Shown here: positions 9,681 to 23,556 of the stretch, in pieces
How the letters are laid out: the number at the start of each line of letters is the position of its first letter
How positions within the stretch are numbered: position 1 is the first letter of the stretch
Assembly: GCA_963719225.1 (NCBI GenBank)
Contig: CAVRAY010000002.1
Span: forward strand, 390,077 to 454,076
Source of the DNA: Thermoanaerobaculia bacterium
GTDB taxonomy: Bacteria; Acidobacteriota; Thermoanaerobaculia; UBA5066
Reading direction: 5' to 3'
DNA length: 64,000 nt
Translations under genes and position numbers: made by a program
The notes under the pieces: model-generated
Seen by the model: only the letters and a program-made list of their open reading frames with translations
Database searches by the model: none
Told to the model about the DNA's origin: nothing

Positions 9681-12600
9681 TCACTTCGGCAGGTCGACGA
9701 TCGCGAACCGCCCCTCGAGGTCCGCGACGAAGAGGCGGCTCTTGGGAAGGAGCGCGAGGCCCGAGGGCTTCTCGAACTTCTGGCCCTCCGGCTGGTCCTT
9801 TCCCTTGAGCGTCGTGACGAGCCGGCCTTCGTTCGTGTAGGCGCGAATTTCGCCGGCGAGAGGCACCGAGACCCACAGGAGTCCCTTCGAATCGACCGCG
9901 AGGTACGGCTCGGACATGACCTCGCGCCGCCAGCCGGGGACGTCGAAGGCGCGCAGGAACCCCCCGTTGCGGTCGAAGACCACGATGCGGCCGTTTCCGT
10001 TGTCGGCGACGTAGACGTTACCGTCCTTTCCGGCGGCGATTCCCTGCGGGTCGGCGAGCTTGCCGGGCTCCGTCGTTCCCCACTCGGCCTCTTTGTGTCC
10101 GAAGCCGTCGAAGCGGACGACGCGCCCGTTCCCCGTGTCCGCGACGAAGACCGAGCCGGCCGCGTCCACGGCGATCCCGCGCGGTCCGAAGAAGCCGCCG
10201 GCCCATTCGCGCAGCCAGGTGCCCTTCTCGTCGAAGACCTGTACGCGGCCGTTCCACGTGTCGGCCACGAAGACGAGACCCGACGGGCTCACCGCCACGC
10301 CGCACGGATCGTTGAATTGTCCGGGCCCGCTGCCACGCGTTCCGAGCGCCAGGAGGAAGACCCCGTCCGGTCCGAAGAGCTGCACTCTCTGGTTTCCGAA
10401 GTCCGCGACCCAGACGCGCCCGCGAGCGTCCGATGCCGCCCCGCGCGGCTGGCGCACGCGGCCCGCGGCGTCGGCCGGCGGCGAGGGAGTCGCCTGCTCT
10501 TTTCGCGGCGCGGAGGGAAGCTCCTCCACGCGCACCGGCGCCGCCGCGACGCCCGGCGCGAAGACGCCCTTCACCGCGAAGAGGACCATCTCCGGATTCC
10601 GGTAGACGGGCGTGAGGAGATCCGTCCACGACTCGAACCGCGCCAGATTTCCGCCGGCGTAGATCCGGCGTTCGAGGTTCCCGACGGCCACGAGGGCCAC
10701 GTGGTACCTCAGGAGGATCCGCCTCACGGCTTCCTCCTCGGCGAGGGTGTACGCCGCCGTGACGTCCGCCTTGCGGCGGTCGATCTCGGGCTGCGCGTGG
10801 CCGCGCTGGAACACGTGGTAGTCCCATCCCAGGACGGTGGGAAGCCCCGTATTCATCGAGAGGCGGGTGAAGTCCTGGTACGACGGGCCCTGCGCCTCGA
10901 GGAGCACGGGCAGACCCTTTACGTTCTCGTTGATCCACTCGATCGCCCCGCGGTCGGAGGGGTTCTGCTTCTCGAGATAGGCCGTCCCGTCCAGGGTGAA
11001 GCGCGGCCAGCCGCCACGGTCGAGCCGTAGGAACCCCGCGAACGCCGTGACGGTCGTGTACAGGGCAGCGAAGCCCGCGAGGACGATCGCAGCGCGCCAG
11101 GCGATCGATTTCGAAGCCCGGAACGTCTCCCAGGCGAGAGCTCCCGCGAGGGAGAAGAGAAGCCACGTCTCGAAGTGGAACTTGAAGATCGTGTTCATCC
11201 GGTCCCACACGTAGATGACCTCGCAGCCCGTCAGGATCGCGAAGCCGAACGCGGTGAGCGCGAGAGCGGGACGCAGGCGGTCATCGGTCGGCCGGCGGAG
11301 CGCCGCGAGGAGGGTGACGAGGAAGGCGACCGCCGTGAAGAAACCCGAGGACGGCGTCTCGGCGAGCCGTGGCGGATGGAGAGACAAGGACACGAGGGAG
11401 AGCGGGAGGGCGACCGCCGCGAGGACGAGGAACGCCTTCGCCGCTCTCCCGACGGGGGCGGCGCTTTGCTTCCAAGCGACGAAGGCGAACGGGACGAGGA
11501 GCGCCACGAAGAACGCCCAGACGTTGAAGAAATCCCAGGGTTGCGCCCAGGGGCCGACCTCGCGCCCCCAGTTCCGCGGCGGGGGCGAGAACCGCGCCCA
11601 GAACGGACGCGCGAGGAGCGCCCCCAGGAGGACGACTCCCGCCGCCGGCAGGAAGACGCGGGCCACGAGTGCCTGGGCCGAGCCGGCGAACCCGGCGGGA
11701 CGCGTCCCGAGCCAGAGAACTCCGGGCAGGAAGAGGAGAAGGCACGTGTAGACGGGAATCGACCAGCCGTTCGTGATCTGGAGCGCGGCGAAGAGGAGAC
11801 CGGAAAGACCGACGAGCGCGATCGCATGACGGGAAGCGAAAGGAGCCTGCCGGTCGCGTGTGACGAAGAGAAGAAGGGCCGCGACGAAGGCCGCGGTGAA
11901 GGGCAGCGCGAAGACGTGCGCGTGCAGGTCCGCGAAGAGGAAGCTCCAGAACGGGTACTCGTTGATGGCGTTCGGCGCGATGACGCGCGACGTGGCCCAG
12001 AAGTAGTGCCAGTCGAGGGCGCGGCCGGCCTGGCGGAAATGGAAGTCGAACGCCGTCCGCGGTCCGGACGGAGGCGCGAGAAAGAGCGCAAGGAGAACGG
12101 CGACCGCGCCGGTGCGAAGGCGGCCCCCGAGTGCGGCGCCGGCGGCGAGGATCGCGGACGCCGAGAGCGCCGCCGTCATCGCGATCGCGAGGTTGAAGAG
12201 GATGCCCGGATGAATGCCGAGGAGCTTTCCCGCCGCCGCAGCCAGGAAATGGCCGAAATACGTGTACGAGAGCGGCGTGCCGGCGAGCCAGGGCTCGGGC
12301 GGAGGAAGCTCCGTGGACCTCAGGAGCGTGTTCAGGAACGAGAAGTCCATCGGCTTCTCGCCCGAAAAGATCTCCGGGTTCAGGGCGCGCACGGCGAGGA
12401 AGAACAGGAACGTGCCCCAGAAGACGAGCGCCGTCTTCCGGCGCTCGGGCGTCGGCGTGGCCTCGCGCGCCCGGCGGCGACCGGAGAAGCCGGCGAAAAG
12501 GAGCGCGAGAGTCGTGACGGCGAGAAGTCCGCGCGTGAACGGGGCGACGCGCCACGCGACGAGGAGCCAGGGCACGAACGCGAAGAGGAGGACGCCAGTG

Positions 12601-14492
12601 ACGCGACCGAGAGCCTCCCGCCCCGGACGCGCCGGAAGAAGAGCCGACAGGATCCCCGCGCCGGCCAGGCCCGTGAGCTCGAGCCACGCCGCGAAAAGGA
12701 GTAACGCGAGGAGGGAAGACCGCAGGCCCGGAAGGCCCCGTCCCGTTTCGGCGCTTTCCGCGATCGCCGGCGCCGAGACCGCGGGACGCGCGAGGAGAAG
12801 GTCGTTCCTCGTGAGGGTCTTCGAAGGTGTGGCGGAAAGGAAGGCTTTCTCGATCGCTTCGGCGGGCATGCGCTTCGTGTTCTCGAAGAACACGACTTTC
12901 GGGTGGTCGTAGACGGTGAACGACTCGTCCGCGAGCTCGTCGGGGATCCGGATCCCCAGGAGCGACGGGCGCGAGGCGACCTCCCGTTGGAGCGTGTAGC
13001 CCAGGTCGCCGGAAAAAAGGAGGCGGAAGGCGCGGTTCGTGAGAGGGAACTTCTCGGGTGCGCGCGTGACGGCGCCGTAGAGTCGCTTCGTCTGGAGGAC
13101 CAGCCAGTCCGCTTCGCCAAGCTCCCGCGCGAGCTTGGACATCTTCTCGGGCGAGTCGGGCTCGTAGAAGCCGAACGTGACGATCCTGTAGCGCTCGGCG
13201 AGGCGGCCCGGAAGGCTGAACGGGAACCCTTCGTCCCAGTCCTGCTCGAGAACCCGCGCGCCGTCCCGGACGTGGTCGTGAAACCACAGTGACGCCGTGA
13301 CGGAGCTGTGCGGACGCGTGTAGATCGAAAGGAACGCGAGGGCCCACGCGGCGGTCCCGCCCACGACGAGGACTCGCAGCGCGCGTCCCGCGCGTCCCTG
13401 CCCGGCCTTCTCGGTGAGCCAGGCCGCCGCCCAGAGAGCGAGGAGTGGATAAACGGGGAGGAGGTACCGCAGGAACTTGACCTCGAAGGTGCACGTCAGG
13501 AAGACGTAAGGCACGAAGAACGAGGCGAGGATCCACTCGGCCGGCGAAAGGGCGCGGAAGCGTCCGAGGCGCCGTCCGGCCGCCCAGAGGGCGGTGAGGC
13601 CGAGGAACGGCCCGAGGCCCCAGAGCACGATCTCCCGGGCCTCGTACAGGAAGTTCGGGACGCCGATGTACTGGTTCGTGTACGGCACGATTCCGGCGTG
13701 GCGGACCATCGCGCCCTGCTCGGACACCGAGCGCCAGAACTCGCGGAAGTCGAGAAACGCGTAAGGCTCGCCGAGAAAGAACGCGGCGAAGGCCGCGACG
13801 CCGCCGATCGCGAGCAGAAACGCCCCCCGGCCCCAGGCGCGCGCCGGCCGGCACGCGAGAAAGACGGCGACGGCGAGCGGAAGGAAAAGCGGCGCCGCGC
13901 TCGCCTTCGTCGCGAGCGCGAAACCGGTGAGCGCGCCGGCGAGAAGGGCGTCGCGCGAGCGCCCCCTGAGCCCGAGGCGGACCGAAGCGGCGAGCGCGAG
14001 GAGGACGAAGAGCGTCAGCGTCACGTCCGTGGCGGCGAAGTGCGACGTCTGGAGGTGGAGGACGGAAAGCGCGAGAAGGAGGCCCGCGAGGAGGCCCGCC
14101 TTTTCGCCGTAGACGCGTCGGCCGATGGCCGCGACGAGAAGGACGGTCAGGGCCCCGGCGAGGGCCGACAGGAAGCGGCCGACGTGGATGACCCCGTCGT
14201 AGGAGGCGAACCACCCCCGGCCGGTCACCTCGACGAGGAGCGCGGACGCCGCCTTCGTGAGATAGAAGGGCAGCGAGCCGTACGCGAAAAAGTGCGGGTT
14301 GAGCTGGAGCGGGTGGAACGAGAGCTTGAGGATCGCGTCGCCGATGGCGCGCTCGTCCGGGTGGAAGAAGTGGTTCTGGTCGAAGTCCAGCCCGACGAGG
14401 CGGATGACGAAGGCGAACAGGGCCAGAAGAAGCAGGGGTGTGCGGAACGCTCGCGGCGACGGGGCGGGTCCCGCGGGCTCTGACGGGATCAT
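9681..14492 (-). CDS. Giant integral-membrane fusion: GT-C (PMT/ArnT/GT39-like) module + DUF2298/YYY-type membrane module + C-terminal NHL-repeat beta-propeller
   Basis: Likely start is MIPSEPAGP… at ~14492; the tabulated start at 14588 would overlap the divergent SGNH gene. More than 25 predicted TM helices. First periplasmic loop carries 'HPDERAIGDA', a GT-C-type D-E motif. The second module contains 'LGWDYHVFQRG', reminiscent of DUF2298/oligosaccharyltransferase WWDYG-like motifs. The C-terminus has at least 5 NHL repeats (…RVWVADFGNQRVQLFGPDG…, GLVFVADTWNGRVQVFD, SVFVADTGNGRVVRFD, NVYVADNGNGRIVVFD). Confidence 0.6.
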   Translation of the reverse strand: MIPSEPAGPAPSPRAFRTPLLLLALFAFVIRLVGLDFDQNHFFHPDERAIGDAILKLSFHPLQLNPHFFAYGSLPFYLTKAASALLVEVTGRGWFASYDGVIHVGRFLSALAGALTVLLVAAIGRRVYGEKAGLLAGLLLALSVLHLQTSHFAATDVTLTLFVLLALAASVRLGLRGRSRDALLAGALTGFALATKASAAPLFLPLAVAVFLACRPARAWGRGAFLLAIGGVAAFAAFFLGEPYAFLDFREFWRSVSEQGAMVRHAGIVPYTNQYIGVPNFLYEAREIVLWGLGPFLGLTALWAAGRRLGRFRALSPAEWILASFFVPYVFLTCTFEVKFLRYLLPVYPLLALWAAAWLTEKAGQGRAGRALRVLVVGGTAAWALAFLSIYTRPHSSVTASLWFHDHVRDGARVLEQDWDEGFPFSLPGRLAERYRIVTFGFYEPDSPEKMSKLARELGEADWLVLQTKRLYGAVTRAPEKFPLTNRAFRLLFSGDLGYTLQREVASRPSLLGIRIPDELADESFTVYDHPKVVFFENTKRMPAEAIEKAFLSATPSKTLTRNDLLLARPAVSAPAIAESAETGRGLPGLRSSLLALLLFAAWLELTGLAGAGILSALLPARPGREALGRVTGVLLFAFVPWLLVAWRVAPFTRGLLAVTTLALLFAGFSGRRRAREATPTPERRKTALVFWGTFLFFLAVRALNPEIFSGEKPMDFSFLNTLLRSTELPPPEPWLAGTPLSYTYFGHFLAAAAGKLLGIHPGILFNLAIAMTAALSASAILAAGAALGGRLRTGAVAVLLALFLAPPSGPRTAFDFHFRQAGRALDWHYFWATSRVIAPNAINEYPFWSFLFADLHAHVFALPFTAAFVAALLLFVTRDRQAPFASRHAIALVGLSGLLFAALQITNGWSIPVYTCLLLFLPGVLWLGTRPAGFAGSAQALVARVFLPAAGVVLLGALLARPFWARFSPPPRNWGREVGPWAQPWDFFNVWAFFVALLVPFAFVAWKQSAAPVGRAAKAFLVLAAVALPLSLVSLSLHPPRLAETPSSGFFTAVAFLVTLLAALRRPTDDRLRPALALTAFGFAILTGCEVIYVWDRMNTIFKFHFETWLLFSLAGALAWETFRASKSIAWRAAIVLAGFAALYTTVTAFAGFLRLDRGGWPRFTLDGTAYLEKQNPSDRGAIEWINENVKGLPVLLEAQGPSYQDFTRLSMNTGLPTVLGWDYHVFQRGHAQPEIDRRKADVTAAYTLAEEEAVRRILLRYHVALVAVGNLERRIYAGGNLARFESWTDLLTPVYRNPEMVLFAVKGVFAPGVAAAPVRVEELPSAPRKEQATPSPPADAAGRVRQPRGAASDARGRVWVADFGNQRVQLFGPDGVFLLALGTRGSGPGQFNDPCGVAVSPSGLVFVADTWNGRVQVFDEKGTWLREWAGGFFGPRGIAVDAAGSVFVADTGNGRVVRFDGFGHKEAEWGTTEPGKLADPQGIAAGKDGNVYVADNGNGRIVVFDRNGGFLRAFDVPGWRREVMSEPYLAVDSKGLLWVSVPLAGEIRAYTNEGRLVTTLKGKDQPEGQKFEKPSGLALLPKSRLFVADLEGRFAIVDLPK

Positions 14493-14515
14493 TTCGCTTA
14501 AGATAGCGGGAAGAA

Positions 14516-15715
14516 GTGTACGACACGGATTTCGGGCCGAGCAGGCGCCCGCTCGCCGCCAACCTCGCCCTCCTGCTCGGCTCGACACTCGTGGCCCTCG
14601 CCCTCTGCGAGGTCGGCGCGCGCCTCCTTCTTCCCCCGCCCCAGACGGTCGAGGTCGAACAGAAGAAGGAGGCCTACGAAGCCCCGAAGGGCTTCGAGCG
14701 GCTCGAAACGCAGGCGGACAAGTCGATCGACTCCGTCGTCCTCTTCGGCGGTCCCCACGGCGTGAGGCTGCGACCGAACACGCACGGTGAGATTCATCAA
14801 CACGTCCTGAGCCGCCGCGACGTCGTCATCGACGTCAACTCGCTCGGCCTGAGATACCCCGAGCTCCCGCCCAAGGCCTCCGACGAGTTTCGCGTCCTCG
14901 TCCTCGGGGACTCGATCACGTTCGGCGACTTCGTCCTCGAGGAAGAGACGTGGACGCGCCGGATGGAGGCGCTGACCAAGGGCAGGAAGAAGATCGTTCG
15001 TTTCATCAACGCGGGCCTGCCGGGAGCCGGCACGGCCGAGGAGCTCTCTCTCTTCCGCGAGATCGGACCGAGCGTGAAGCCCGATCTCGTCCTCGTCGGG
15101 ATGTATCTCAACGACGCGCAGTCGGGAAGCCTCTTCTTCGCGAAGAAGCTCCCGGGGGTGTGGGGAAAGAGTCGATTCCTGTCCTTCCTGTCGGACCGCT
15201 TCCAGCTCCTCGACACCCGCTTTTTCAAGAGCGCTCTCCCCGGGGCGATCGATCCCGGCTGGAAGGAGACGTTCCGTGCGGGGCGGGATCTGAAGTCCGG
15301 CGACATGTTCGGGACGCGCGTCGGGTTCGACTTCGAGATCTACAACGCCTACATGGACTTCGGCCTCGGCTGGAACCCGAAGGCCTGGAAGGTCCTCGAG
15401 CCGATCACGGCTGCGCTTCGCGACGACGTGAACAGGGAGTCCGCCCGCCTTGCCGTCCTGCTGTTTCCCGTGCACATCCAGGTGTTGGGGACCGTCGAGA
15501 GGTTCGAGCCCCAGGAGAGCTGCCGGGAGATGTGCGCGCGCCTCCACGTCCCGTTCGACGACCCCGTTCCCGAGCTGCGCAGGACCTGGCAGTCCAGGCA
15601 CGAGAGGCTCTTCTACGACCACTGCCACTACACGCCGGCGGGCTACGAGGTCCTCGCGAGGCAGACGGTGGACTTTCTGGACGCTGAAAAACTGATTCCC
15701 CCGCCGGTCCGCTAG
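14516..15715 (+). CDS. Membrane-anchored SGNH/GDSL-family hydrolase (esterase or acyltransferase-like)
   Basis: N-terminal TM anchor. Block I 'FRVLVLGDSITFGDF' (GDS motif). C-terminal 'DHCHYTPAGY' (catalytic D-x-x-H). Only ~23 bp separate it from the divergent giant GT-C gene. Confidence 0.7.
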   Translation: MYDTDFGPSRRPLAANLALLLGSTLVALALCEVGARLLLPPPQTVEVEQKKEAYEAPKGFERLETQADKSIDSVVLFGGPHGVRLRPNTHGEIHQHVLSRRDVVIDVNSLGLRYPELPPKASDEFRVLVLGDSITFGDFVLEEETWTRRMEALTKGRKKIVRFINAGLPGAGTAEELSLFREIGPSVKPDLVLVGMYLNDAQSGSLFFAKKLPGVWGKSRFLSFLSDRFQLLDTRFFKSALPGAIDPGWKETFRAGRDLKSGDMFGTRVGFDFEIYNAYMDFGLGWNPKAWKVLEPITAALRDDVNRESARLAVLLFPVHIQVLGTVERFEPQESCREMCARLHVPFDDPVPELRRTWQSRHERLFYDHCHYTPAGYEVLARQTVDFLDAEKLIPPPVR

Positions 15716-15718
15716 CTC

Positions 15719-18700
15719 ATGAAGAAGGCGAGGCTCCGCGATTCGTTGCCGCTCGCCACCGCCTTCGCCGCCTCTTTCGCGCTGCTTTGCGCCGTGGCGT
15801 TCCAGGGCCGCGGCGAAGCGGCCCGGGGCGACCGCGTCCTCGGCGCGCTCGACGGCCTCGCGTTTCGCTTTCGCGCCTCGGCGACCGTTCTTCTTCCCTG
15901 GGCGTATGCGCACCGTTCCGGGTGCGCGCTTTTCGCGACGCTCCTTCTCGTGACGATCGCGGCGGCCGCGTGCGCGCGCGGAGGCCGGCGCGGAATCCCG
16001 GCAGCGCTCCTGTCCGGAGCCCTGGCCGCCGCCGCCTGGGGCGAGATCCTCCTTCTCGAAGGCGCGCGCATCGCGGGCTGGACGTTTTTCGCCGCCGCCG
16101 TCCTGGCGGCGGGTATCGCCGCGCACGTTCGACCACTCGCTTCGGTGCCGGGCTTTCCCGCCCTGAGCGCGGAATCCCGCCCCCGGACTTCCGGGGAATG
16201 GGCTCTTCCGGGCTGGACCGAGTCCCTCGGCCTCCTCGCGCTCGTGGTCCTCGCCCTCTTCGCGCGCGCCTGGGCCGTCAACCAGCTTCCCTCCATCTTC
16301 GACGAGGAGATGATCTCCGTCCAGACGCAGAGCCGGACGGCCCACGGCCTGAAGCAGTTCGTGGCGACCGAGTTCGTCGGAACGAGCAACGGCCTCGCGA
16401 CGCCGGCCACGAACCGGGTCGTGTTCGGGGCGCTCGGCGTCTCCCTCTACGCGACGCGCGTCACGGCCCTCGTCTGGGGCCTCGCGGCCGTGCCGCTCTT
16501 CTGGGGTCTCGTCCGACGCCTTTGCGGAGGCCCTCTCGCGACCTTCGGCGCGACGCTCCTCTTCGTCTGCGCCCCCGAGCAGCTCTTCTGGTCGAGGAGC
16601 GAGGTCTCCGTGTTCGCGCCCGTCGCGCCGCTCGGCCTCCTCTTCGCCCACGTGGGCCTGTCGATGGTGGAGCGGTTCGGAGTGGCGCCGGTCGTCCTGG
16701 CGGCGTGCCTGACTCCGGTCTGCCGCTTCTTCTACACGGCGGGCCACGTCTTCTTCGTCTACCCGGCTCTTCTCGCGGGCCACGCCGCGCTCTTCGTGAA
16801 GGGCTTCGCGCGCCGCGCGCTGCGCGCCGTGCCCGTTCTCCTCCTCGGCGTCCTCGTCTGGGGCTTCAGCGTCTCGATCGCCGTCGCCGCGGCCGGCGGC
16901 CCGAGACGGTTCGTCGATCCGGCGCAGGTGCGCGGCGAGCCGGCCTGGCGGGCCGGGTTCCCCGCAAACGCTTCGGCGGCGGAGGTCCTGCGCGGGCAGG
17001 CATCGCGCGTCGCGGGGAATCTCGTGAGCGTGGGCGCGAGCCTGACGGCGCACCAGGCATACGCGACCCACTGGTACGAGCGCTACACCGTCGTGCCCGC
17101 AAAAGATCCGATGGTCCCGGTGGGGCTCACGATCCTCGCGACCGTCGGCTTCGGCACTCTCCTCGGCCAGATCGCGGAGCGACGCGCCGCCCTCGTTCTC
17201 TTCTGGCTCGGTCTCGGCCTCCTGCCCGGCGTCCTTTCGGACGAGCCGGACGCCCGGCGGCTCTCGGTCATCTTCGTCCCGATCCTCCTGCTCGCCGCGA
17301 TCGCCGTGACGACCTGGGTCCGCCTCGCGCGCGACGCCGGCGGCCGCGCCGCCGGCCACTTCGCGTGCGTGGGTGCGGGTCTCGCGATCGCGTGCGTCGC
17401 GGCGTCGGGCCTCGCGTCGAATCTGCTCCTCCCGGTCGCGCCGCTCGTGCGGGACGAGCAGATCCGCTTCGCACGCCCGCTCGTCGAAAAGAGCGACGTC
17501 GTCCTCCACAACCTCTTCTACCGGTTTGGCAAGACTCTCGAGTTCGGCTTCCTCGACCGGCTGCTCGCGCCCTCCGGGCCGTGTCTGCAGTTCGTCGACC
17601 GCGGCGACGAGCTCCTTTCGCTCCTGACGCCGAGGTGCGACTTCACCGAGGAGGTCTACGATCTGACGCTCGCGCCCGCCGAGATCGAGAAGAGGCGGCG
17701 CGCTCACCGCGCTTTGCGAGTGTCGTATCTCTTTCGCGACACGCCGTCCGCCCGAAAGGCCGTGGCCCTTCTCCCCGCGGTGGACAGCGGAGCGCGCGTC
17801 CTGGAACGCGACTGGCCCTCCATGGGAGAGCGGCTCATGGCCTTCGAGGTGAATCCCGGAGCCCTCCGCGCCGCAACGGCGCCCCAGGAGTCTCCGACCG
17901 GGGTCTCCGGCGGCTTCCTGGTGCCCAAGCCGGGATGGTACCGGCTCGTTCTGTCTCCGCCCTGCCCGGCCGCGCGGGTCGCGGCGCTCGGTTCGCGTTG
18001 GAACGGAGAAGAGGAGCGACCCCTGCTTCCGGGCATCTTTCCCTTCGAGATCTCGGGCCCGACGGCCTGCGCGTCGAGTGCGCGGCCGTATCTCGTGACC
18101 TCGGGCACCGACACACCCTTCGCGCCCGCCCTGACGACACCCGCCCTCGCCCTTTTTCCCGAGACGCGGGGCACCGAGCCGGTCCCGTTCGCGGGCTGGT
18201 CCCGCGCGCGTATCGTCCTGCGCACGGCGGATCGGATCTCGGACTTCGGCGTCGACCGCGAAGGGCGGCTGTACGCGCTCTTCCTGCGCGACCAGGCGTG
18301 GGAAATCCGCCGATATTCGCGCGGCGGTGCCGAGACGAAGCGCGTGCGCGCGGACCTGCCGCTCGACGCGAGCACGGGGACGCTTCTCGTCGAGCCGGAC
18401 GGTGGTTGCATCGCTTTTTCGCTCCGGACTTTCGAGCGCTTCGACGAGGACCTCGTGCGCCGGGAGCACTGGGAGCTTCCGGGCGGGCGCAGCGGCTCTC
18501 ACGCGGCGCGCCTCCCGGGCGGACGGCTTGCCGTTCTGACCGGAACCTTTCTCGAGATCCTGAACCCGGCGGGGCGCGTCGAAAGTACGTGGGGGTCCGA
18601 GGGAGAGTCGACCGGCCAGTTCGAGCTGCCGATCGCCGTGACGTTCGCGGACGAAAGGCTCGCGGTCGTCGAGGAGGCGGGGAACGTGCACGTGTTCCGC

Positions 18701-19012
18701 CTGACCGAAAACCCGATCACGTTGAAGAGAGAGAGCCGGTTCCAGCTCGCCTTCGCGCGCGAGCCGCATTCCGAGTATCTCCGCGGCGCCGCGCTCGACG
18801 GGTCGAGGCTCCTCGTTCCGTACAACCCCGCCGAATTGCCGCTCATCGTGGATCTCCAGGGCACCCGCCTGATGCCGGCGCGATCCACGAGCGACCTCCA
18901 TCGCCAGGACCTCGCCTGGCCCTACCGCTTTTCGCACCTGCCGCGCGAGCTTTACGTTCTCGACGCGGTCGACTCCGCGATCCACGTCCTGACGCCGGGC
19001 GAGGCGCCGTGA
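15719..19012 (+). CDS. Polytopic membrane GT-C-like protein with C-terminal NHL-like beta-propeller region
   Basis: Starts 3 bp after the SGNH stop. Many TM helices. First loop 'LPSIFDEEMISVQTQ' is a candidate D-E motif. C-terminal ~350 aa contain NHL-like repeats (…WGSEGESTGQFELPIAVTFADERLAVVEEAGNVHVFRL…). Confidence 0.5.
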   Translation: MKKARLRDSLPLATAFAASFALLCAVAFQGRGEAARGDRVLGALDGLAFRFRASATVLLPWAYAHRSGCALFATLLLVTIAAAACARGGRRGIPAALLSGALAAAAWGEILLLEGARIAGWTFFAAAVLAAGIAAHVRPLASVPGFPALSAESRPRTSGEWALPGWTESLGLLALVVLALFARAWAVNQLPSIFDEEMISVQTQSRTAHGLKQFVATEFVGTSNGLATPATNRVVFGALGVSLYATRVTALVWGLAAVPLFWGLVRRLCGGPLATFGATLLFVCAPEQLFWSRSEVSVFAPVAPLGLLFAHVGLSMVERFGVAPVVLAACLTPVCRFFYTAGHVFFVYPALLAGHAALFVKGFARRALRAVPVLLLGVLVWGFSVSIAVAAAGGPRRFVDPAQVRGEPAWRAGFPANASAAEVLRGQASRVAGNLVSVGASLTAHQAYATHWYERYTVVPAKDPMVPVGLTILATVGFGTLLGQIAERRAALVLFWLGLGLLPGVLSDEPDARRLSVIFVPILLLAAIAVTTWVRLARDAGGRAAGHFACVGAGLAIACVAASGLASNLLLPVAPLVRDEQIRFARPLVEKSDVVLHNLFYRFGKTLEFGFLDRLLAPSGPCLQFVDRGDELLSLLTPRCDFTEEVYDLTLAPAEIEKRRRAHRALRVSYLFRDTPSARKAVALLPAVDSGARVLERDWPSMGERLMAFEVNPGALRAATAPQESPTGVSGGFLVPKPGWYRLVLSPPCPAARVAALGSRWNGEEERPLLPGIFPFEISGPTACASSARPYLVTSGTDTPFAPALTTPALALFPETRGTEPVPFAGWSRARIVLRTADRISDFGVDREGRLYALFLRDQAWEIRRYSRGGAETKRVRADLPLDASTGTLLVEPDGGCIAFSLRTFERFDEDLVRREHWELPGGRSGSHAARLPGGRLAVLTGTFLEILNPAGRVESTWGSEGESTGQFELPIAVTFADERLAVVEEAGNVHVFRLTENPITLKRESRFQLAFAREPHSEYLRGAALDGSRLLVPYNPAELPLIVDLQGTRLMPARSTSDLHRQDLAWPYRFSHLPRELYVLDAVDSAIHVLTPGEAP

Positions 19013-21855
19013 GCACGTCCTCGGCGGCGCCGCTCCGGACGCTCGCCCTCCTCGCGCTCGGTTTCGCGTTCGCAGGCGAGGAGCTGATCCGGACGGGCCG
19101 GGCTCCGTGGGCCGGCATCGGCGCGCAGCTCCTCGCGTCGGGTCTCTTCGCGTGGGGCGCCTGGCCGCGGCCGGCGCCACTCGGGAATGCTCCCACGGCG
19201 CGCCGGAGAGGCACGGGCGCTCTTCTCGCATTCGCCGCCGTCTCTCTGGGCGCGATCGCGTCGATCGTGTGGTGCCTCAGGCTCTACGCCCACGGCCGCG
19301 ACGTGGCCGCCGAGGGCCCGTGGATCGCCGCGATCCTCCTGATGGCGGCGGCCGGCTTTCTCGGAGGCGAGCTCACGGCCATCGCCCCGCGCTGGGACGC
19401 CGCGCCTCCTCTCGAGAGCCGGACCCGCCGAGGCCTCTTCGCGCTCGCGGTCGTCCTGATCCTCTGCCTCGCGGCTGCGACGCGCCTTCCCGCGCTCGAC
19501 AGGATTCCCTTTGGGATTAACGCGGACGAGGGCGATCGGGCCGCGGTGTCGCTCTCGATCCTCCGGAGCCACGACGTGACGCCGCTCTTCGGCGTCGGCT
19601 GGTACCACATCAGCATCGTCTACTTCCGGCTCCTCGCGGCGGTCATGCGCGTGGCCGGAGCGACCGTTGCCGGGGCGCGGACGTTCGGCGCCCTCTGTGG
19701 AATCGCCACCGTGGGTCTCGTCCTCGCGCTCGGGGTCAAGCACTTCGGGCGTCGGGCCGGCCTTCTCGCCGGACTCCTCGTCGCTTCTTTCGGACCGGCT
19801 CTGCAGTTCTCGCGGGAGACGACGGAGGCGAGCCCCACCGCCACGCTCTGGACCGCGAGTGCGCTGCTGTTCCTCGAAGCGGCGCGCGGAGGACGTGCGT
19901 GGGCCTGGATCCTCTCGGGGCTCGCGGGAGGCTTTTCGCTCTACTTCTATCCGACGGGACGCCTGTGGAGCGTCCTCGCGATCCTTTTCGTGATCGCGCT
20001 CCTCGTGACCTCTCCGCGCGGCACGCGCGCGAAGATCCTCTCGGGAGCGCTCCTCGCGGCGGTCGCGGCGCTCGTCATCGGCGCGCCGTTTCTCTACCGG
20101 GCGTACGTCAACCCGGACTGGTTCGTCGTGAGGGCCCGGGAGACGAGCATCTTCGTCAGCTCGAACCTGACGCGGCTGGCGTACGTCCATCGCGACTGGT
20201 CGACGCCCCGTCTCCTCCTCGCGCAGCTCGAGCGGTCGATCGGGATCTTCAACCGCTTTCCGGACGGCAACTATTTCTGGCCGACGGGAAAGCCGATCCT
20301 CCCTCCCGCGCTCGCGGCCCTGACGATCACCGGCCTCTTCGCGAGCCTCTGGCGCGTCCGGGATCCACGGCACGCCCTCCTTTCGGCATGGTTCTGGGCC
20401 GGATTCGTGGGGGTCATCGTCACCGTAGAGACGCCAAACCTCCAACGCATGGCGACAGCGGTACCGGTGCTCGCGATCTTCGCGGCGCTCGTGCTGGACG
20501 AGGTGGTGCGCCGCTTCGCGGCGCCTCTCCAGGACCGCCGGGGCCGTGCCGCCGTGATCGCCCTCGTTTCGGCGGCCGCGCTCGCGCTGGCGGCCCGAGA
20601 GCTCGTCTTCTACTTCGGAGACTACGCGAAGCGTGACGCGTGGCCATACCCGCGGATCGAGGGAGGCACGGTCGCGCAGGAAGGCCGCGACGCCTGGGTC
20701 GTGAGCCTCGGCAACCAGTTCCACATGGTCAACTCGGGCTGGGTGTATCACCTCGCGCCCGACTCCCATCGCGCGGGAATCCTCTCTCCCGGGTTCCACC
20801 TCCCCCTGACGATCCCCGCGAACCGCGATCTCGCCTTCCTTTTCTATCCCGGGCAGGACGTGTACCGGCACTTCGTCGAGGGCATCTATCCGGGTGGGAG
20901 CACGCGCCGTGTTTCGACTCCGCCCGACCAGTGGATCTTCGACGTGTATCGCGTGCCCCTCTCCACGTGGCGGGCCACGCAGGGAGCGCTCGTGCACCTC
21001 CCCGAAGGCCCCGTCCACGTGCTCTCACTCGGAGATCCCGCGCCCGCGCCGCGCTCAAGCTCGGGAGGGAGATGGACCGCGGCGATGCGCGTGCCTCGCT
21101 TCGCCAACACTGCCTTCCGCCTCGGCCCGGGACCGGCCCGCCTCACGATCGACGGCCGGGAGGTCCTGTCGGTGGCGGCGGGCGAGCCGGTGAAGGAAGT
21201 CTCCCTGTGCCTCGCGCGCGGCGATCACTTCGTCGAGCTGGACACCGCGGGCGAGGGCCGTCCTCCCGCGCGCCTTCTCTGGGCTCCGTACCTGGCCCCG
21301 GGAGCCGAGCCCGCCTTCCAGACGATTCCGCCCGCGATCCTGAGACCTCTCGCCGAACCTCCGGGCGGGCTCTTCGGCGTCGTGACCTTCCCCGGTGGAA
21401 GGAGGCTCGAGCGGCTCGACGGAACGCTCGCGACGTGGAACCTTTGCGAGGAGTTTCAGTTCGGCGGCGAGCCCTTCGAGGCCGTGTGGAGGGGATCGCT
21501 CGTCCCTGCCGTTCCGGGGACCTACAAGTTGGGACTTCTGGCCTACGGAACGGCCGAGCTCAAGATCGACGGGCGGACCATTCTCAAGAGCGAGGGGGCG
21601 CACGACGAGCCGATTGTCGCGGACCTCGAGCTCTCGAGAGGAGAGCACGCCGTCGAGCTCACCTTCAGGCAGACCGTCGAGCCCGCGAGACTCGAATGGT
21701 CCTGGACGGAGCCCGGCGGGCAGACCACCATCGTGCCGCCGTCCGCACTCCGTCCTCCTCGGGGCGCGGGCGTTTCGCCGCCCAGGAAGCCTGAAGACTT
21801 CGGACCGCCCGGGCGCCCCCCGCTCGTCGACCACGCCGTTTTCCTGAGGTGGTAA
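19009..21855 (+). CDS. GT39/ArnT-like (PMT_2) glycosyltransferase fused to C-terminal PA14-like domain(s)
   Basis: GTG start at ~19009 overlapping the upstream stop (GTGA). The N-terminal part of the tabulated ORF 15787-21855 is a wrong-frame artefact. 'RLPALDRIPFGINADEGDRAAVSL' is a GT-C first-loop DE motif. About 13 TM helices. The C-terminus 'GTYKLGLLAYGTAELKIDGRTILKSEG…GEHAVELTFRQT' is PA14-like. Confidence 0.6.
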   Translation: MSTSSAAPLRTLALLALGFAFAGEELIRTGRAPWAGIGAQLLASGLFAWGAWPRPAPLGNAPTARRRGTGALLAFAAVSLGAIASIVWCLRLYAHGRDVAAEGPWIAAILLMAAAGFLGGELTAIAPRWDAAPPLESRTRRGLFALAVVLILCLAAATRLPALDRIPFGINADEGDRAAVSLSILRSHDVTPLFGVGWYHISIVYFRLLAAVMRVAGATVAGARTFGALCGIATVGLVLALGVKHFGRRAGLLAGLLVASFGPALQFSRETTEASPTATLWTASALLFLEAARGGRAWAWILSGLAGGFSLYFYPTGRLWSVLAILFVIALLVTSPRGTRAKILSGALLAAVAALVIGAPFLYRAYVNPDWFVVRARETSIFVSSNLTRLAYVHRDWSTPRLLLAQLERSIGIFNRFPDGNYFWPTGKPILPPALAALTITGLFASLWRVRDPRHALLSAWFWAGFVGVIVTVETPNLQRMATAVPVLAIFAALVLDEVVRRFAAPLQDRRGRAAVIALVSAAALALAARELVFYFGDYAKRDAWPYPRIEGGTVAQEGRDAWVVSLGNQFHMVNSGWVYHLAPDSHRAGILSPGFHLPLTIPANRDLAFLFYPGQDVYRHFVEGIYPGGSTRRVSTPPDQWIFDVYRVPLSTWRATQGALVHLPEGPVHVLSLGDPAPAPRSSSGGRWTAAMRVPRFANTAFRLGPGPARLTIDGREVLSVAAGEPVKEVSLCLARGDHFVELDTAGEGRPPARLLWAPYLAPGAEPAFQTIPPAILRPLAEPPGGLFGVVTFPGGRRLERLDGTLATWNLCEEFQFGGEPFEAVWRGSLVPAVPGTYKLGLLAYGTAELKIDGRTILKSEGAHDEPIVADLELSRGEHAVELTFRQTVEPARLEWSWTEPGGQTTIVPPSALRPPRGAGVSPPRKPEDFGPPGRPPLVDHAVFLRW

Positions 21856-21862
21856 GCGGTGC

Positions 21863-22660
21863 TCAGGGCGCGGGTGCTTCGGCCCCGCACCAATACGCCT
21901 GTTCCGCGATCGTCTCGAGCGCGGAGGAGCGATAGCGCCCCGACTCCCACGAGCGCCGAAGCGACGCGATGCGCAGGAGCATGCCCAGGGAATGGAGACC
22001 GAGGTGCACGGTGCTTTGCCCGGAGCGGCGCAGGCGGACCGGGACGCGCTTGATCTCGAGGTTGTACTTCAGCGCGACGTAGAGGAGTTCCACGTCGCCC
22101 GCGAAGCCGTTCTCCCTGAGGAGAGGGAAGAGCGCCTCCGCGACGTCGCCGCGGAAAGCCTTCAGACCGCACTGGGTGTCGAAGAGCCCGCCGGTCACGA
22201 GCATCCGCACGAAAAAGGAGAACGCGAGAGAGGCCGTGTCGCGGTGCCACGGCACGTGGGGCCTGTAGTCGGACGCATGGAGCGTGCGGTCTCCGGTGAC
22301 GACGTGGAAGCCGCGGTCGTTCACGAGGCGGGCCATGTAGGGAACCGCGTCGAGATCGAAGGGAAGGTCGGCGTCCGTGAAGACACGGCACCGGCCTCGG
22401 CTCGCGAGCATGCCCGCCTTCAGCGCGCCGAACTTCCCGAGGTTCCTCGGGAGAGAGACGACCCTGAGGCTCCGCGCCCGGGACGTGGCGAGGCGTTCCG
22501 CGGTGCCGTCCGCGCTGCCGTCGTCGACCGCGACGATCTCCCAGGAGAGGGAGCCCCGGCCCAGGAACTCGTCCGCATCGGCGAGGCTCCGCTCGACGAA
22601 ATCCGCCGCGTTGAAGACGGGCAGGACCAGGGAGAGATCGGGAGGAGCTTCGACGCTCAC
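21863..22660 (-). CDS. GT2-family polyprenyl-phosphate sugar synthase-like glycosyltransferase (GtrB/ArnC/DPM1-like)
   Basis: The real product is only the C-terminal 265 aa of the tabulated 672-aa ORF. GTG start at ~22660 overlaps the methyltransferase stop (GTGA). 'LSLVLPVFNAADFVERSL…EIVAVDDGSADGT…FTDADLPFDL' shows the GT2 DxD and DAD motifs. Confidence 0.7.
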   Translation of the reverse strand: MSVEAPPDLSLVLPVFNAADFVERSLADADEFLGRGSLSWEIVAVDDGSADGTAERLATSRARSLRVVSLPRNLGKFGALKAGMLASRGRCRVFTDADLPFDLDAVPYMARLVNDRGFHVVTGDRTLHASDYRPHVPWHRDTASLAFSFFVRMLVTGGLFDTQCGLKAFRGDVAEALFPLLRENGFAGDVELLYVALKYNLEIKRVPVRLRRSGQSTVHLGLHSLGMLLRIASLRRSWESGRYRSSALETIAEQAYWCGAEAPAP

Positions 22661-23556
22661 GGAGCGGAGCTCCGGCGCGCCGTCACGAGCATCGAGCCCG
22701 AATTCGCGTAAAGGGCCGCGCGGCCCGGGGGGAGAAGGCGCGCAAACGCGCGCACGAGGCCTCCGCCGAACGGAAGGGCGTCGCCGATGCGCGAGAGAAG
22801 GAAACCTCCGGACACGTACTGGCCGCACGCGGAGAGGTGCTCGATCTCGAACTCCGGGGCGAGGGCCTCCGCGAGCGTCGACGGCGAGAAGTACGCGACG
22901 TGCTCGGGGATCTTGTAGGACACCCAGCGGCGCCCCGTCACGCGCGCGAGAAGGCTCTTCACGTTCGGCGTGGCGACGACAACCCGCCCTTCCGGCGCGA
23001 GGTGCCACGCGAGGTCCACCGCGAGCGCGCGGGGGTCGTAGACGTGCTCGATGACGTCGAAGAGCGTGATGACGTCGAAGGTCCCTCGGGGAAAGAGGCG
23101 GTCGGACAGCTTTCCGAGGCGGACGCGGTCCGGATGGCGAGAAGACGCGATCGCGACCGCGGGCCCGGAGACGTCCAGCCCCGACGCGTCGTAGCCGAGC
23201 GCGCGCGCCGCCTCGAGGCCGGCTCCGGGACCGCACCCCACGTCGAGGAGGCGAGCGCCGGGCGCGGGAGGAGGGAGCCGCGAGAGGCGTCGGACGAACG
23301 TGCGGACGAGGAGCGGCTCCATGGAGGCATAAGAGGAGTATCCGCCCTCGGAGCCGCCCTTTTCCCAGTAGTCGTCGGATTCGTACAGGAGAGGGACGTC
23401 GCTCTCGGCGACGCGCGGGGTGAGATAGCGCATCGAGCACGAGCGGCAGTCCACGACACGGTACGGCCCGAACGCGGCGCGCGTTCTGGCGGGAGGCGCC
23501 TCGCCGCAGAGCGGACACGTGCAGGTTTCGAGGCGGTACGGAGCGGCCGCAGGCAT
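22657..23556 (-). CDS. Class I SAM-dependent methyltransferase with N-terminal Zn-ribbon
   Basis: N-terminal CPLCG…CRSC zinc ribbon. 'LLDVGCGPGAGLEAARALGYDASGLDVS' is SAM-binding motif I. 'VVVATPN' follows. Confidence 0.7.
   Translation of the reverse strand: MPAAAPYRLETCTCPLCGEAPPARTRAAFGPYRVVDCRSCSMRYLTPRVAESDVPLLYESDDYWEKGGSEGGYSSYASMEPLLVRTFVRRLSRLPPPAPGARLLDVGCGPGAGLEAARALGYDASGLDVSGPAVAIASSRHPDRVRLGKLSDRLFPRGTFDVITLFDVIEHVYDPRALAVDLAWHLAPEGRVVVATPNVKSLLARVTGRRWVSYKIPEHVAYFSPSTLAEALAPEFEIEHLSACGQYVSGGFLLSRIGDALPFGGGLVRAFARLLPPGRAALYANSGSMLVTARRSSAP

Follow-up and report, generated by a model that had tools for sequence, protein, structure and literature searches.

Glycosylation systems built from three components, a GT2 enzyme, a flippase and a GT-C transferase, are well established, as are GT-C enzymes fused to carbohydrate-binding modules, namely GT136 ORF12, EmbA/B/C and AftD (PMC11127046). 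The three-component systems are represented by GtrA/GtrB/Gtr* of Shigella and Salmonella, Citrobacter ORF12-15 with its GT136 enzyme, CsbB/GtcA/YfhO and GtlA/GtlB (teichoic acids). Mannan and arabinan assembly in mycobacteria and corynebacteria pairs donors from Ppm1 or PpgS with PimE, MptA-C, EmbA/B/C and AftA-D. Here we analysed a six-gene locus (g1 to g6) in a 64,000-nucleotide stretch of DNA (the window) from an uncultured member of the Thermoanaerobaculia (Acidobacteriota), in which a sequence-only reading had seen a candidate periplasmic glycosylation locus. As in the three-component systems, a GT2 of the polyprenyl-phosphate-sugar class adjoins polytopic GT-C genes whose products have an acidic first periplasmic loop, and we consider it likely that the six products form a pathway for extracytoplasmic glycosylation from lipid-linked donors.

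Gene content and limits of the locus

All six ORFs were present in the window, and ORF, Pfam and NCBIfam analyses agreed with the sequence-only reading on their coordinates and domains, g3 being without a profile match. The GC3 filter was passed by g1, g2, g3 and g6 (GC3 0.87-0.89). It did not resolve g4 or g5, each of which is contained in a longer open frame; for these two we relied on the public gene calls of contig L001, a contig 100% identical to the window, and on tblastn conservation of both genes in related loci. TonB-receptor-like outer-membrane proteins and a LytTR two-component system are encoded upstream and Rieske/cytochrome b downstream, and since these flanks are unrelated to the cluster we left the locus limits as first drawn. 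The only additional ORF, at 23637-24233, encodes a lipoprotein. There was no flippase gene of the GtrA, SMR, MATE or Wzx type in the locus, no UbiA or DprE gene in the window and no Ara4N biosynthesis gene (ArnA, ArnB, ArnD) nearby. Inspection of the sequence verified the GTGA overlaps of the g3 stop with the g4 start and of the g6 stop with the g5 start; these 4-nt overlaps indicate co-translation.

The g5 gene (21863..22660, minus strand) encodes a 265-aa GT2 (69 bits in Pfam) of the polyprenyl-phosphate-sugar synthase class. Its description as GtrB/DPM1-like is borne out by its nearest solved relatives in the PDB, ArnC (1e-11), GtrB sll0501 (2e-10) and P. furiosus DPMS (1.5e-6), all of which are polyprenyl-phosphate glycosyltransferases. 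In NCBIfam it matched PpgS, DolP-hexose transferase and ArnC best but fell well short of every equivalog cut-off (for PpgS it scored 52 of the required 370 bits), and it lacks the C-terminal TM helices that GtrB and ArnC have. The coupled gene, g6 (22657..23556, minus strand), encodes a 299-aa SAM methyltransferase (Pfam Methyltransf_23, 85.5 bits) with an N-terminal CxxC...CxxC zinc ribbon, its cysteines lying in CPLC14 and CRSC37, so that both the ribbon and the GTGA coupling to the GT2 are as previously described. Among the PDB relatives of g6 are UbiG and three sugar N-methyltransferases, CalS10, TylM1 and DesVI (E 1e-7 to 1e-4). The 399-aa product of g2 (14516..15715, plus strand) is the membrane-anchored SGNH/GDSL hydrolase that had been proposed, with a Lipase_GDSL_2 match (39.2 bits, Pfam cut-off 32.9), an N-terminal TM helix at 13-31 and the residues GDS131, N199 and D368-x-x-H371 (DHCH368).

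GT-C modules and their soluble domains

Three GT-C enzymes had been counted in the locus. The number of proteins stands, but g1 is a tandem of two, which brings the number of GT-C modules to four. The 1603-aa g1 protein (9681..14492, minus strand; Pfam and NCBIfam assignments; identical protein in NCBI/ENA, P0035) has the order PMT_2-type module, linker domain, DUF2298/YYY module, AglB-like domain and NHL propeller. Residues 1-390 (13323..14492, minus strand) form the PMT_2-type GT-C membrane module (54.3 bits, Pfam cut-off 26.1), which is related to Agl23/TIGR03663; the latter profile matched it at 22.5 bits (E 5e-5), below the NCBIfam cut-off of 126, and matched 16 of 22 full-length g1 homologues at E<1e-3 (best 5e-11). 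Just past its first TM helix (19-37 by hydropathy) lies the HPDER motif (D46-E47; 14349..14363, minus strand), in which no residue falls below 90% conservation among g1 homologues (alignment A2). The two GT-C modules are separated by a soluble domain, residues 391-585 (12738..13322, minus strand), a hydrophilic stretch of 195 residues that is well conserved in the same alignment and that, from GT-C topology, we infer to be a periplasmic linker.

Residues 586-1152 (11037..12737, minus strand) form a DUF2298/TIGR03662 (Chlor_Arch_YYY) membrane module with a GT-C fold, scoring 282 bits for DUF2298 and 415 bits for TIGR03662 (NCBIfam cut-off 300). In the loop after TM helix 687-705 it carries the motif GEKPMDFSFLN (residues 711-721; 12330..12362, minus strand), in which E, K, M, D, F, F, L and N do not vary across 23 sequences (A2) or across a set of 9 (A4), one of them a stand-alone DUF2298 protein from Binatia; its acidic residues are candidate catalytic residues. 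Foldseek matched this module to DPY19, AglB, STT3, AftA and ArnT, with E-values between 2e-8 and 1e-4. Transporters were also considered and rejected, matching only at a Foldseek probability of ≤0.18. The module's C-terminal soluble domain, residues 1153-1320 (10533..11036, minus strand), resembles the globular domain of AglB/STT3 and contains GWDYH (10815-10829, minus strand) as its WWDYG-like motif. The six-bladed NHL-repeat beta-propeller, residues 1340-1603 (9684..10475, minus strand; Pfam E 2e-34), has PDB sequence matches to the NHL domains of TRIM71 and TRIM2 (E 1e-41 to 1e-52) and to the PknD sensor domain (6e-21).

The 1097-aa g3 protein (15719..19012, plus strand) is a Pfam orphan, with zero matches in Pfam and NCBIfam, and consists of a divergent PMT_2-like GT-C core, a middle domain and an NHL-type propeller; 6 of the 8 remote members of its family that we tested passed the PMT_2 cut-off. 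Its membrane core (residues 1-591; 15719..17491, plus strand) is a GT-C fold and not a transporter, and has four extra N-terminal helices ahead of the canonical TM1 at 166-186. The FDEEMIS motif (D195, E197; 16298..16318, plus strand) begins the helix of the first extracytoplasmic loop (model helices 166-186, then 196-204), and across 26 homologues, the most distant at 31% identity, E197 is invariant and conservation of D195 is 90% or higher. The six-bladed propeller (residues ~821-1097; 18179..19009, plus strand) is below Pfam detection and was found only by fold and by a weak PDB sequence match (E 0.002). In g4 (19009..21855, plus strand; 948 aa), a PMT_2-type GT-C module (42.6 bits, above the Pfam cut-off) is joined to a C-terminal periplasmic region containing a PA14 domain (residues 804-910; 21418..21738, plus strand; 27.2 bits, Pfam cut-off 24). 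Its NADEGD motif (D173-E174-G175-D176; 19519..19536, plus strand) follows TM helix 142-160, and these four residues are invariant in 25 homologues, down to 41% identity.

The three loop-1 motifs of the earlier reading were thus found by exact translation at their window positions, and their acidic residues are conserved, as it had anticipated. With the DUF2298 motif included, conserved acidic residues start the first predicted periplasmic loop in each of the four GT-C modules; judged solely from sequence position and secondary structure, the motifs would sit in the active-site groove. That the membrane domains are GT-C folds rather than transporters holds by fold for the g3 core and the DUF2298 module (AF2 models from shallow alignments of 26 and 23 sequences) and by Pfam PMT_2 matches for the g1 N-terminus and g4. 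The predicted C-terminal NHL and PA14 domains were recovered by Pfam in g1 and g4, respectively, whereas the g3 propeller is a fold-level assignment.

At a threshold of E <= 0.001, word-indexed searches returned 722 relatives for g1 and 198 for g4. The best 120 of the 722 were all strong and mostly full length, with the same architecture in nearly all complete proteins; the best 120 of the 198 were likewise all strong and, where complete, almost all of the g4 architecture, and PMT_2+PA14 was precomputed for most. Many of the relatives listed are named 'DUF2298/YYY domain-containing', 'GT39' or 'PMT/PA14 domain'. The view that such fusions are not a described architecture therefore applies to the experimental literature only and not to the databases: PMT_2+DUF2298+NHL and PMT_2+PA14 are abundant and automatically annotated, and so uncharacterised rather than unseen.

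Conservation of the cluster in other genomes

The expected conservation of gene neighbourhood was found in two forms. The six-gene order is identical in five other genomes, where g3 identity is 66-79%. At distant loci (g3 identity 27-48%; other Acidobacteriota, Desulfurellales and unclassified MAGs) genes for g1, g3, g4-like, GT2, Methyltransf_23 and SGNH proteins are co-located in shuffled order, the SGNH gene being found near g3 homologues down to 38% g3 identity (L012, L013). A Binatia locus reached through its g1 homologue combines g1 with DUF2298, GT4, Methyltransf_23 and PMT_2+NHL genes. In four distant loci a PgfS/ArnC-like GT2 of 329-345 aa directly follows the g3 homologue. Related loci also encode Laminin_G_3 and NPCBM proteins, a NodU-like carbamoyltransferase, a sulfatase, extra methyltransferases, a decaprenyl-phosphate phosphoribosyltransferase-like UbiA protein and DprE1-like and DprE2-like proteins. 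Together with the PA14 domain of g4, such partners are hallmarks of polysaccharide assembly from polyprenyl-phosphate monosaccharides.

Proposed pathway, alternatives and known systems

In the pathway that we propose, g5 would load a monosaccharide onto polyprenyl phosphate at the cytoplasmic face, as its class-level similarity suggests, and the translationally coupled g6 would probably methylate that monosaccharide or a precursor of it. The lipid-linked sugar would then pass to the periplasmic face, by a route that we assign to no gene of the locus because a dedicated flippase gene is absent. There the donor would be used by the four GT-C modules (g1 PMT_2-type, g1 DUF2298-type, g3 and g4), which would transfer sugars to different positions or in different linkages, with the periplasmic NHL propeller (g1, g3) or PA14 region (g4) holding the acceptor, and the periplasmic, membrane-anchored g2 may add or remove an acyl decoration. 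The acceptor is most likely a cell-envelope glycan or glycolipid, built or decorated outside the inner membrane in a manner that may resemble mycobacterial mannan/arabinan assembly or the side-chain glycosylation of O-antigen or teichoic acid, rather than a target of protein O-mannosylation. We favour a glycan because of the PA14 domain of g4 and the carbohydrate-type genes in related loci. Our observations cover the gene content, the folds, the conservation of the motifs and the synteny, from which we infer which donor and acceptor are used, how the proteins sit in the membrane and that they are catalytically active. To our knowledge, NHL propellers are not established as lectins, and the structural neighbours of the propellers include PAL lyase, lactonases, phytase and protein- and RNA-binding domains.

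The PMT_2 family holds protein O-mannosyltransferases as well as the lipid A modifier ArnT, and the locus could instead O-glycosylate Ser/Thr of secreted or membrane proteins, like actinobacterial PMT or streptococcal PgfS/PgfM, with the NHL propellers recruiting the protein substrate as the MIR domain of PMT or the TPR domain of TMTC does. The structural neighbours include Pmt2 and Pmt4, NHL propellers mostly bind protein or ligand (TRIM proteins, PknD sensor), and the C-terminal domain of the DUF2298 module is similar to that of the oligosaccharyltransferase AglB; however, the WWDYG-like motif is unconserved, reading GWANH in a stand-alone DUF2298 protein. The GT2s adjoining distant g3 homologues score best against PgfS, of streptococcal protein glycosylation, yet their 245-252 bits are just half of the 500-bit cut-off. 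Four distinct GT-C modules would be unusual for a single protein modification, and the PA14, NPCBM, Laminin_G_3, carbamoyltransferase and DPPR-synthase-/DprE1/2-like genes point to polysaccharide chemistry, so that we regard protein glycosylation as unlikely, though worth keeping in view. The missing flippase suggests another role for the g1 N-terminal module (and possibly others), which would stand in for a GtrA-type flippase and translocate the polyprenyl-phosphate sugar while the remaining modules transfer it. TIGR03663, the family to which the module is related, has the NCBI name 'flippase activity-associated protein Agl23', and we counted in favour of translocation that purified Haloarcula Agl23 supported the translocation of lipid-linked oligosaccharide in proteoliposomes and rescued yeast rft1-delta (PMC11182771). 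But the module falls far short of the TIGR03663 cut-off while passing that of PMT_2, its conserved HPDER, typical of a catalytic GT-C loop 1, suggests catalysis, and a flippase gene could lie in another part of the genome. The two activities are also compatible with each other, and we judge this division of labour quite unlikely.

Modification of a membrane lipid, such as lipid A (ArnT-like) or another glycolipid head group, would make the locus a system for adapting envelope charge or permeability. The structural resemblance of the GT-C modules to ArnT says nothing on acceptor specificity, and ArnT-type systems need one GT-C without large periplasmic binding domains. With ArnA, ArnB and ArnD genes also absent nearby, we regard this reading as improbable. 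Finally, the genes might be adjacent merely through shared descent in one lineage and belong to no single pathway. The identical order that includes the Rieske/cytochrome b and TonB-receptor flanks does occur only in close relatives, yet distant genomes keep the genes clustered in different orders between other flanks, and with co-translation at g3/g4 and g6/g5 we give adjacency by descent alone very little weight.

The extracytoplasmic pathway that we prefer differs from STT3/AglB/PglB (GT66) and DPY19 in showing no sequence-level similarity to them (nothing at E<=10 in a PDB profile search) and in that the D and Y of the WWDYG-like motif are unconserved in DUF2298, and from oligosaccharyltransferases in that the adjacent GT2 points to a monosaccharide-phosphate as donor rather than to an oligosaccharide linked through pyrophosphate. 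Unlike the ArnC/ArnT lipid A aminoarabinose system (GT2/GT83), the locus is without Ara4N synthesis genes, and its GT-Cs are multiple, far larger and equipped with periplasmic binding domains. In Archaea and Chloroflexi the TIGR03662 and TIGR03663 families co-occur, and their genes are often neighbours, which would make g1 a fusion of the two. The g1 protein resembles the archaeal Agl22/Agl23 pair in that a genuine TIGR03662 module is combined with one related to TIGR03663, with a DolP-hexose-synthase-like GT2 adjoining, but its N-terminus is below the TIGR03663 cut-off, its host is bacterial (Acidobacteriota) and it has an NHL propeller in addition. Agl23 is reported to be a flippase; the conserved DE motif of g1 suggests a transferase instead. 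The three-component systems, in contrast, have a small flippase gene and one GT-C rather than four modules. In the present locus the GT-C proteins are very large (948-1603 aa) and carry NHL or PA14 domains, an SGNH protein and a methyltransferase coupled to the GT2 are encoded as well, and that GT2 has no C-terminal TM helices. Fusion of a GT-C to an acceptor-binding periplasmic module is shared with GT136 ORF12 (PMC11127046). Mycobacterial assembly occurs in another phylum, the modules have no sequence-level membership of GT53, GT85, GT87 or GT89, and DPA-pathway genes are absent from the window. Genes resembling those for DPPR synthase, DprE1 and DprE2 do occur in related loci. Like that assembly, the locus would use several GT-Cs, some bearing carbohydrate-binding domains, to make a glycan outside the membrane from polyprenyl-phosphate monosaccharides; its donor-synthase GT2 is likewise soluble or peripheral, without TM helices, with PpgS as its best NCBIfam match, and AftA, AftB, AftD and PimE of mycobacteria are among the structural neighbours.

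Gene content and boundaries of the locus

An open reading frame listing of the window (64 kb, G+C 64-72%) recovered all six genes where the sequence-only reading had placed them: g1 (9681-14492, minus strand), g2 (14516-15715, plus strand), g3 (15719-19012, plus strand), g4 (19009-21855, plus strand), g5 (21863-22660, minus strand) and g6 (22657-23556, minus strand). They are packed with overlaps or gaps of no more than 23 nt, and both GTGA start/stop overlaps, like the three motifs quoted for the membrane proteins, translate exactly as had been described. Four of the calls (g1, g2, g3 and g6) pass a codon-position GC filter (GC3 0.87-0.89), and a protein identical to g1 is present in public data. 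By its named homologues and the related genomes, the source organism belongs to Thermoanaerobaculia (Acidobacteriota). The g4 and g5 genes lie inside longer open frames, where the GC filter left both unresolved; these two calls are based on the public gene calls for contig L001, which is 100% identical to the window, and on conservation in related loci.

Since the flanking genes are unrelated to the locus, we consider it bounded as claimed. Directly upstream of g1, two large CarboxypepD_reg and TonB-dependent-receptor-like outer-membrane proteins (18-2981 and 6021-9620) bracket a two-component set of His_kinase, JAB and LytTR response-regulator genes (3073-5723). Downstream, a lipoprotein gene (23637-24233) whose product has no TM helices adjoins the locus and is followed by Rieske/cytochrome b genes. 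The TonB-receptor/His_kinase/JAB/LytTR arrangement is also found beside g1 in the related loci L003 and L021, and not in the distant loci. A second LytTR/His_kinase pair (30190-30942 and 34611-35666) contains an IS-type transposase gene (DUF772 and DDE_Tnp_1; 33290-34426, minus strand), which sits between a Band_7/SPFH protein and a histidine kinase. About 34 kb from the glycosylation locus is a separate polysaccharide-type cluster (57390-61961, minus strand) encoding a Bac_transf initiating phosphoglycosyltransferase with CoA_binding_3 (57390-58826), a GT4 (58883-59983) and a GT2 (61011-61961), all on the minus strand; it could be a source of an undecaprenyl-pyrophosphate-linked acceptor glycan.

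As called, the divergent start codons of g1 and g2 are separated by 23 nt (14493-14515), which is too short to hold two promoters. The g2 homologue in L003 is called 15 codons shorter, leaving a gap of 59 nt there. For both reasons the real g2 start probably lies downstream of the called one (14516).

GT-C modules of g1, g3 and g4

The sequence-only reading had counted three GT-C enzymes in the locus. Three proteins are indeed involved, but the modules number four, because g1 holds two. Its N-terminal module matches PMT_2 (PF13231; CAZy GT39/GT83-type) with 54.3 bits, above the gathering threshold of 26.1, and its second module matches DUF2298 over the whole profile, with 415 bits to TIGR03662 (cut-off 300) and 282 bits to PF10060 (cut-off 27.8). 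The TIGR03662/DUF2298 (Chlor_Arch_YYY) match recurs in all 23 aligned g1 homologues, and the Y-x-Y-x-G motif of DUF2298 is present in g1 (SYTYFGH), as it is in a stand-alone Binatia copy (YYYLG). Pfam also identifies NHL repeats in g1, which form a six-bladed propeller of the NHL-repeat beta-propeller kind. The protein is thus two GT-C modules in tandem, followed by an NHL propeller. In g4, PMT_2 (42.6 bits against the threshold of 26.1) is combined with PA14 (27.2 bits).

Against PDB sequences, g3 and g4 produced no GT-C match, just weak ones of no relevance, and the DUF2298 profile found nothing at E≤10, so that fold comparison was needed. The AF2 alignments were shallow (26 and 23 sequences), but model confidence was nonetheless high; the DUF2298 region of g1 (residues 581-1320), modelled separately, reached pLDDT 88 and pTM 0.92. 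Foldseek ranked DPY19, AglB, yeast STT3, AftA, ArnT and Pmt1/2 at the top for this model (E 2e-8 to 4.5e-3), with transporters appearing only at probabilities of ≤0.18, while for g3 transporters were absent from the top 60. The principal challenge to the earlier claim, that these membrane domains might prove to be transporters, was therefore answered in favour of GT-C for both g3 and DUF2298. For the latter, the model predicts a GT-C fold that carries an AglB-like domain at the C-terminus.

No Pfam or NCBIfam family matches g3, and PMT_2 gives no match to it at E≤0.01 or at the 26.1-bit threshold. An exhaustive profile search put the g3 family at about 50 full-length representatives at the 50%-identity level (counted from the table), and of eight remote full-length members tested, six pass PMT_2 (27.6-30.8 bits) in a region corresponding to g3 residues ~210-370. 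By hhalign, the g3 core matches the g1 N-terminal module weakly (P 7.7e-4, probability 25%), with no signal between the g3 core and DUF2298 or between the two g1 modules. Because fold and transitive homology agree, g3 is taken to be a divergent GT-C of the PMT_2 superfamily; as modelled, both its PMT_2 membership and its NHL propeller are cryptic.

The N-terminal module of g1 also resembles Agl23/TIGR03663 over residues 20-207 (22.5 bits, E 5e-5), well under the family cut-off of 126. TIGR03663 matches 16 of 22 g1 homologues at E<1e-3 (best 5e-11), and on these scores the module is related to the Agl23/TIGR03663 family without belonging to it.

Conservation of the acidic loop-1 residues had been proposed as a check, and on alignment of homologues such residues proved to be kept in all four modules. 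In the g4 alignment of 25 sequences, which reaches down to 41% identity, D173-E174-G175-D176 never varies; the g3 alignment (26 sequences, lowest identity 31%) has an invariant E197 and a D195 that is conserved in at least 90%. Among 23 aligned g1-type sequences, each residue of the N-terminal H-P-D-E-R motif (D46/E47) is at least 90% conserved, and the DUF2298 motif G-E-K-x-M-D-F-x-F-L-N (E712/D716) is invariant except for its leading G and x positions, being kept also in the stand-alone Binatia DUF2298 at 33% identity. Another block of DUF2298, E..(9)..D-L-H-x-H, is likewise invariant and contains D855, H857 and H859 of the ADLHAH motif in g1; a further block is D-R-M-N-T-x-F-K. The invariant DUF2298 residues are candidate catalytic residues. 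Every acidic motif falls a few residues past a predicted TM helix (hydropathy and model secondary structure), the same position that the catalytic loop-1 residues occupy in GT-C enzymes. From hydropathy and by analogy with those enzymes, we infer that the motif loops are extracytoplasmic.

Distribution of the architectures and synteny in related loci

The fusions had been called an undescribed architecture. In the literature this holds, as we found no paper on these fusions, on PMT_2 with NHL, or on Thermoanaerobaculia with glycosyltransferases; in the databases, however, they are common. The g1-type architecture (PMT_2, DUF2298 and NHL, ~1600 aa) gave 722 matches, the best 120 of which are all strong, mostly full length, and annotated as 'DUF2298', 'YYY domain-containing' or 'GT39'; they come from Thermoanaerobaculia, Candidatus Binatia and further Acidobacteriota. 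The g4-type architecture (PMT_2 with PA14) gave 198 matches, extending to Chloroflexia, and some already bear the automatic name 'dolichyl-phosphate-mannose-protein mannosyltransferase/PA14 domain'. The GT-C/NHL/PA14 fusions are thus known to databases yet uncharacterised. Fusion of a GT-C to an acceptor-binding carbohydrate module is itself established for GT136 ORF12, EmbA/B/C and AftD (PMC11127046).

One scan of the GTDB species representatives with the g3 family yielded 15 loci, onto which g1-g6 were mapped by tblastn; the synteny figures are descriptive. The identical six-gene order occurs in five other genomes (g3 identity 66-79%), and fragmentary contigs agree. More distant loci vary in content. 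With g3 at 48% identity, L012 has g1, g3, g2 and g4, followed by genes for a further PMT_2 protein and for UbiA. L013 (38%) has DprE1-like, DprE2-like, Methyltransf_23, NodU-like carbamoyltransferase, SGNH, PMT_2, Methyltransf_23, g3, GT2, two PMT_2+PA14 and PMT_2+NHL genes. The content is g1, g3, GT2, a Laminin_G_3 protein and PMT_2 in L015 of the Desulfurellales (34%), and DUF2298, GT1, methyltransferase, g1, GT2 with TM helices, g3, GT2, methyltransferase, Laminin_G_3, PMT_2+NHL and PMT_2+PA14 in L002/L016 (33%). L019 (27%) has PMT_2, PMT_2+NHL, g3, methyltransferase and an NPCBM protein, and in a Binatia genome, located by way of its g1 homologue, the genes are DUF2298, GT4, Methyltransf_23, g1 and PMT_2+NHL. 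A PgfS/ArnC-like GT2 of 329-345 aa directly follows the g3 homologue in four distant loci. The neighbourhood conservation anticipated for the locus was therefore found as a fixed order in close relatives and as clustering of related gene types in distant ones, and since the flanking genes differ among loci, the association is functional and not an inherited order. A 1004-aa protein with a weak PMT_2 match at the g3 position in L021 was ruled out as a g3 homologue, its only similarity being 27% identity to the g4 core; the loci are accordingly modular, not strictly orthologous.

Related loci with several GT-C genes also encode proteins of 609-820 aa without a Pfam domain (L020:17329-19785, L019:3878-6337 and L015:18705-20531). 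The 818-aa protein of L020 is 28% identical to the membrane core of g4, so related loci probably encode additional cryptic GT-C enzymes. UbiA proteins (L012:20327-21115, L021:938-1810 and L022:7967-8836) score 197-215 bits against decaprenyl-phosphate phosphoribosyltransferase models (cut-offs 207-234), and L013 encodes the DprE1-like oxidase (L013:22-807), the DprE2-like SDR (L013:807-1577) and the NodU-like carbamoyltransferase (L013:2589-4406). Related loci thus carry genes of a decaprenyl-phosphate-arabinose-like donor pathway, which suggests pentofuranose donors in some relatives. Within the 64-kb window itself there are no UbiA, DprE1, DprE2 or NodU-like carbamoyltransferase genes.

Proposed donor and acceptor, and comparison with known systems

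The g5 protein is a GT2 (Pfam) that had been read as GtrB/DPM1-like. Its seven best PDB sequences agree with this (three ArnC, three GtrB and one P. furiosus DPMS), but its best NCBIfam models (PpgS, DolP-hexose transferase and ArnC) score 46-52 bits, where the cut-offs are 370-529. Like PpgS, human DPM1 and mycobacterial Ppm1, it has no TM helices at the C-terminus. The protein is a probable member of the polyprenyl-phosphate-sugar synthase class. Coupled to g5 by a GTGA overlap is g6, a Methyltransf_23 protein with the expected CxxC...CxxC ribbon, which has UbiG and several nucleotide-sugar N-methyltransferases among its relatives of known structure. The g2 product is, as proposed, a membrane-anchored SGNH/GDSL hydrolase, with 39.2 bits against a gathering threshold of 32.9, an N-terminal anchor and intact catalytic blocks (GDS131, N199 in LNDA, and D368-H-C-H371). 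Neither the locus nor the 64-kb window contains a GtrA/SMR/MATE/Wzx-like flippase gene. The genomic linkage of the GT-C genes to GT2 genes of polyprenyl-phosphate-sugar-synthase type indirectly suggests that the GT-C modules may use a lipid-phosphate-linked sugar donor. After the motif, fold and synteny checks, the pathway originally suggested is still the best-supported overall interpretation: glycosylation from a lipid-linked donor, which would act at the periplasmic face. These results support a GT2/GT-C extracytoplasmic glycosylation locus with four GT-C modules and no flippase gene.

Within this model, we put the chances about even that the acceptor is a cell-envelope glycan or glycolipid and not a protein. 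Such an acceptor is preferred because the partners in related loci (PA14, NPCBM, Laminin_G_3, carbamoyltransferase, sulfatase, SGNH, several methyltransferases, and DPPR synthase-, DprE1- and DprE2-like genes) typify polysaccharide assembly from polyprenyl-phosphate monosaccharides, and because four different GT-C modules suggest several linkages. Protein O-glycosylation is a serious rival. As to translocation, with no flippase gene present this step might fall to the N-terminal module of g1, and Agl23 has been reported to support lipid-linked oligosaccharide flipping (PMC11182771). The protein might then be a self-contained 'flip-and-transfer' machine, in which the polyprenyl-phosphate sugar would be delivered or moved across the membrane by the Agl23-related N-terminal module, and the DUF2298 module, predicted to be a GT-C enzyme of the STT3/AglB/DPY19 structural type, would pass it to an acceptor bound by the NHL propeller; we regard both possibilities as unlikely. 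If true, the flip-and-transfer reading would account for the lack of a GtrA-type flippase in the locus and establish a new family of glycosyltransferases, and the archaeal TIGR03662/TIGR03663 pair would come to be read as the two parts of one enzyme.

Acidobacteriota rank with the most abundant bacteria of soil, and next to nothing is known about the glycans of their envelope. The locus and its relatives represent a recurrent, conserved set of giant GT-C enzymes. DUF2298/TIGR03662 gains a concrete predicted fold, that of GT-C enzymes, together with an AglB-like domain at its C-terminus and a set of invariant residues that are candidates for catalysis, and a Pfam-orphan family of ~1100-aa proteins, that of g3, is now placed in the PMT_2 superfamily. 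Hundreds of bacterial proteins join an Agl23-related module to a DUF2298 module, which is relevant to the question of whether Agl23-type proteins act as flippases, as transferases or in both roles. Should the acceptor prove to be a polysaccharide, the GT-C enzymes of these loci would be a new group of extracytoplasmic glycan builders, potentially useful for glycoengineering.

Three-component Gtr-type systems have a dedicated small flippase gene, whereas the g1-g6 cluster does without one. Only two papers mention DUF2298, neither of them dealing with its function, and those on a 'YYY domain' concern another domain. In sequence, the GWDYH of g1 (10815-10829, minus strand; residues 1222-1226, in the AglB-like C-terminal domain of the DUF2298 module) recalls the WWDYG motif of oligosaccharyltransferases. 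Homologues have GWEYH or GWANH, so that G, W and H are invariant while D and Y vary; as the WWDYG-like motif is not conserved and the PDB profile search was empty at E≤10, we rejected DUF2298 as an oligosaccharyltransferase of the STT3/AglB/PglB type (GT66). The similarity of the module to STT3, AglB and PglB is confined to fold, in the membrane core and in the C-terminal domain alike.
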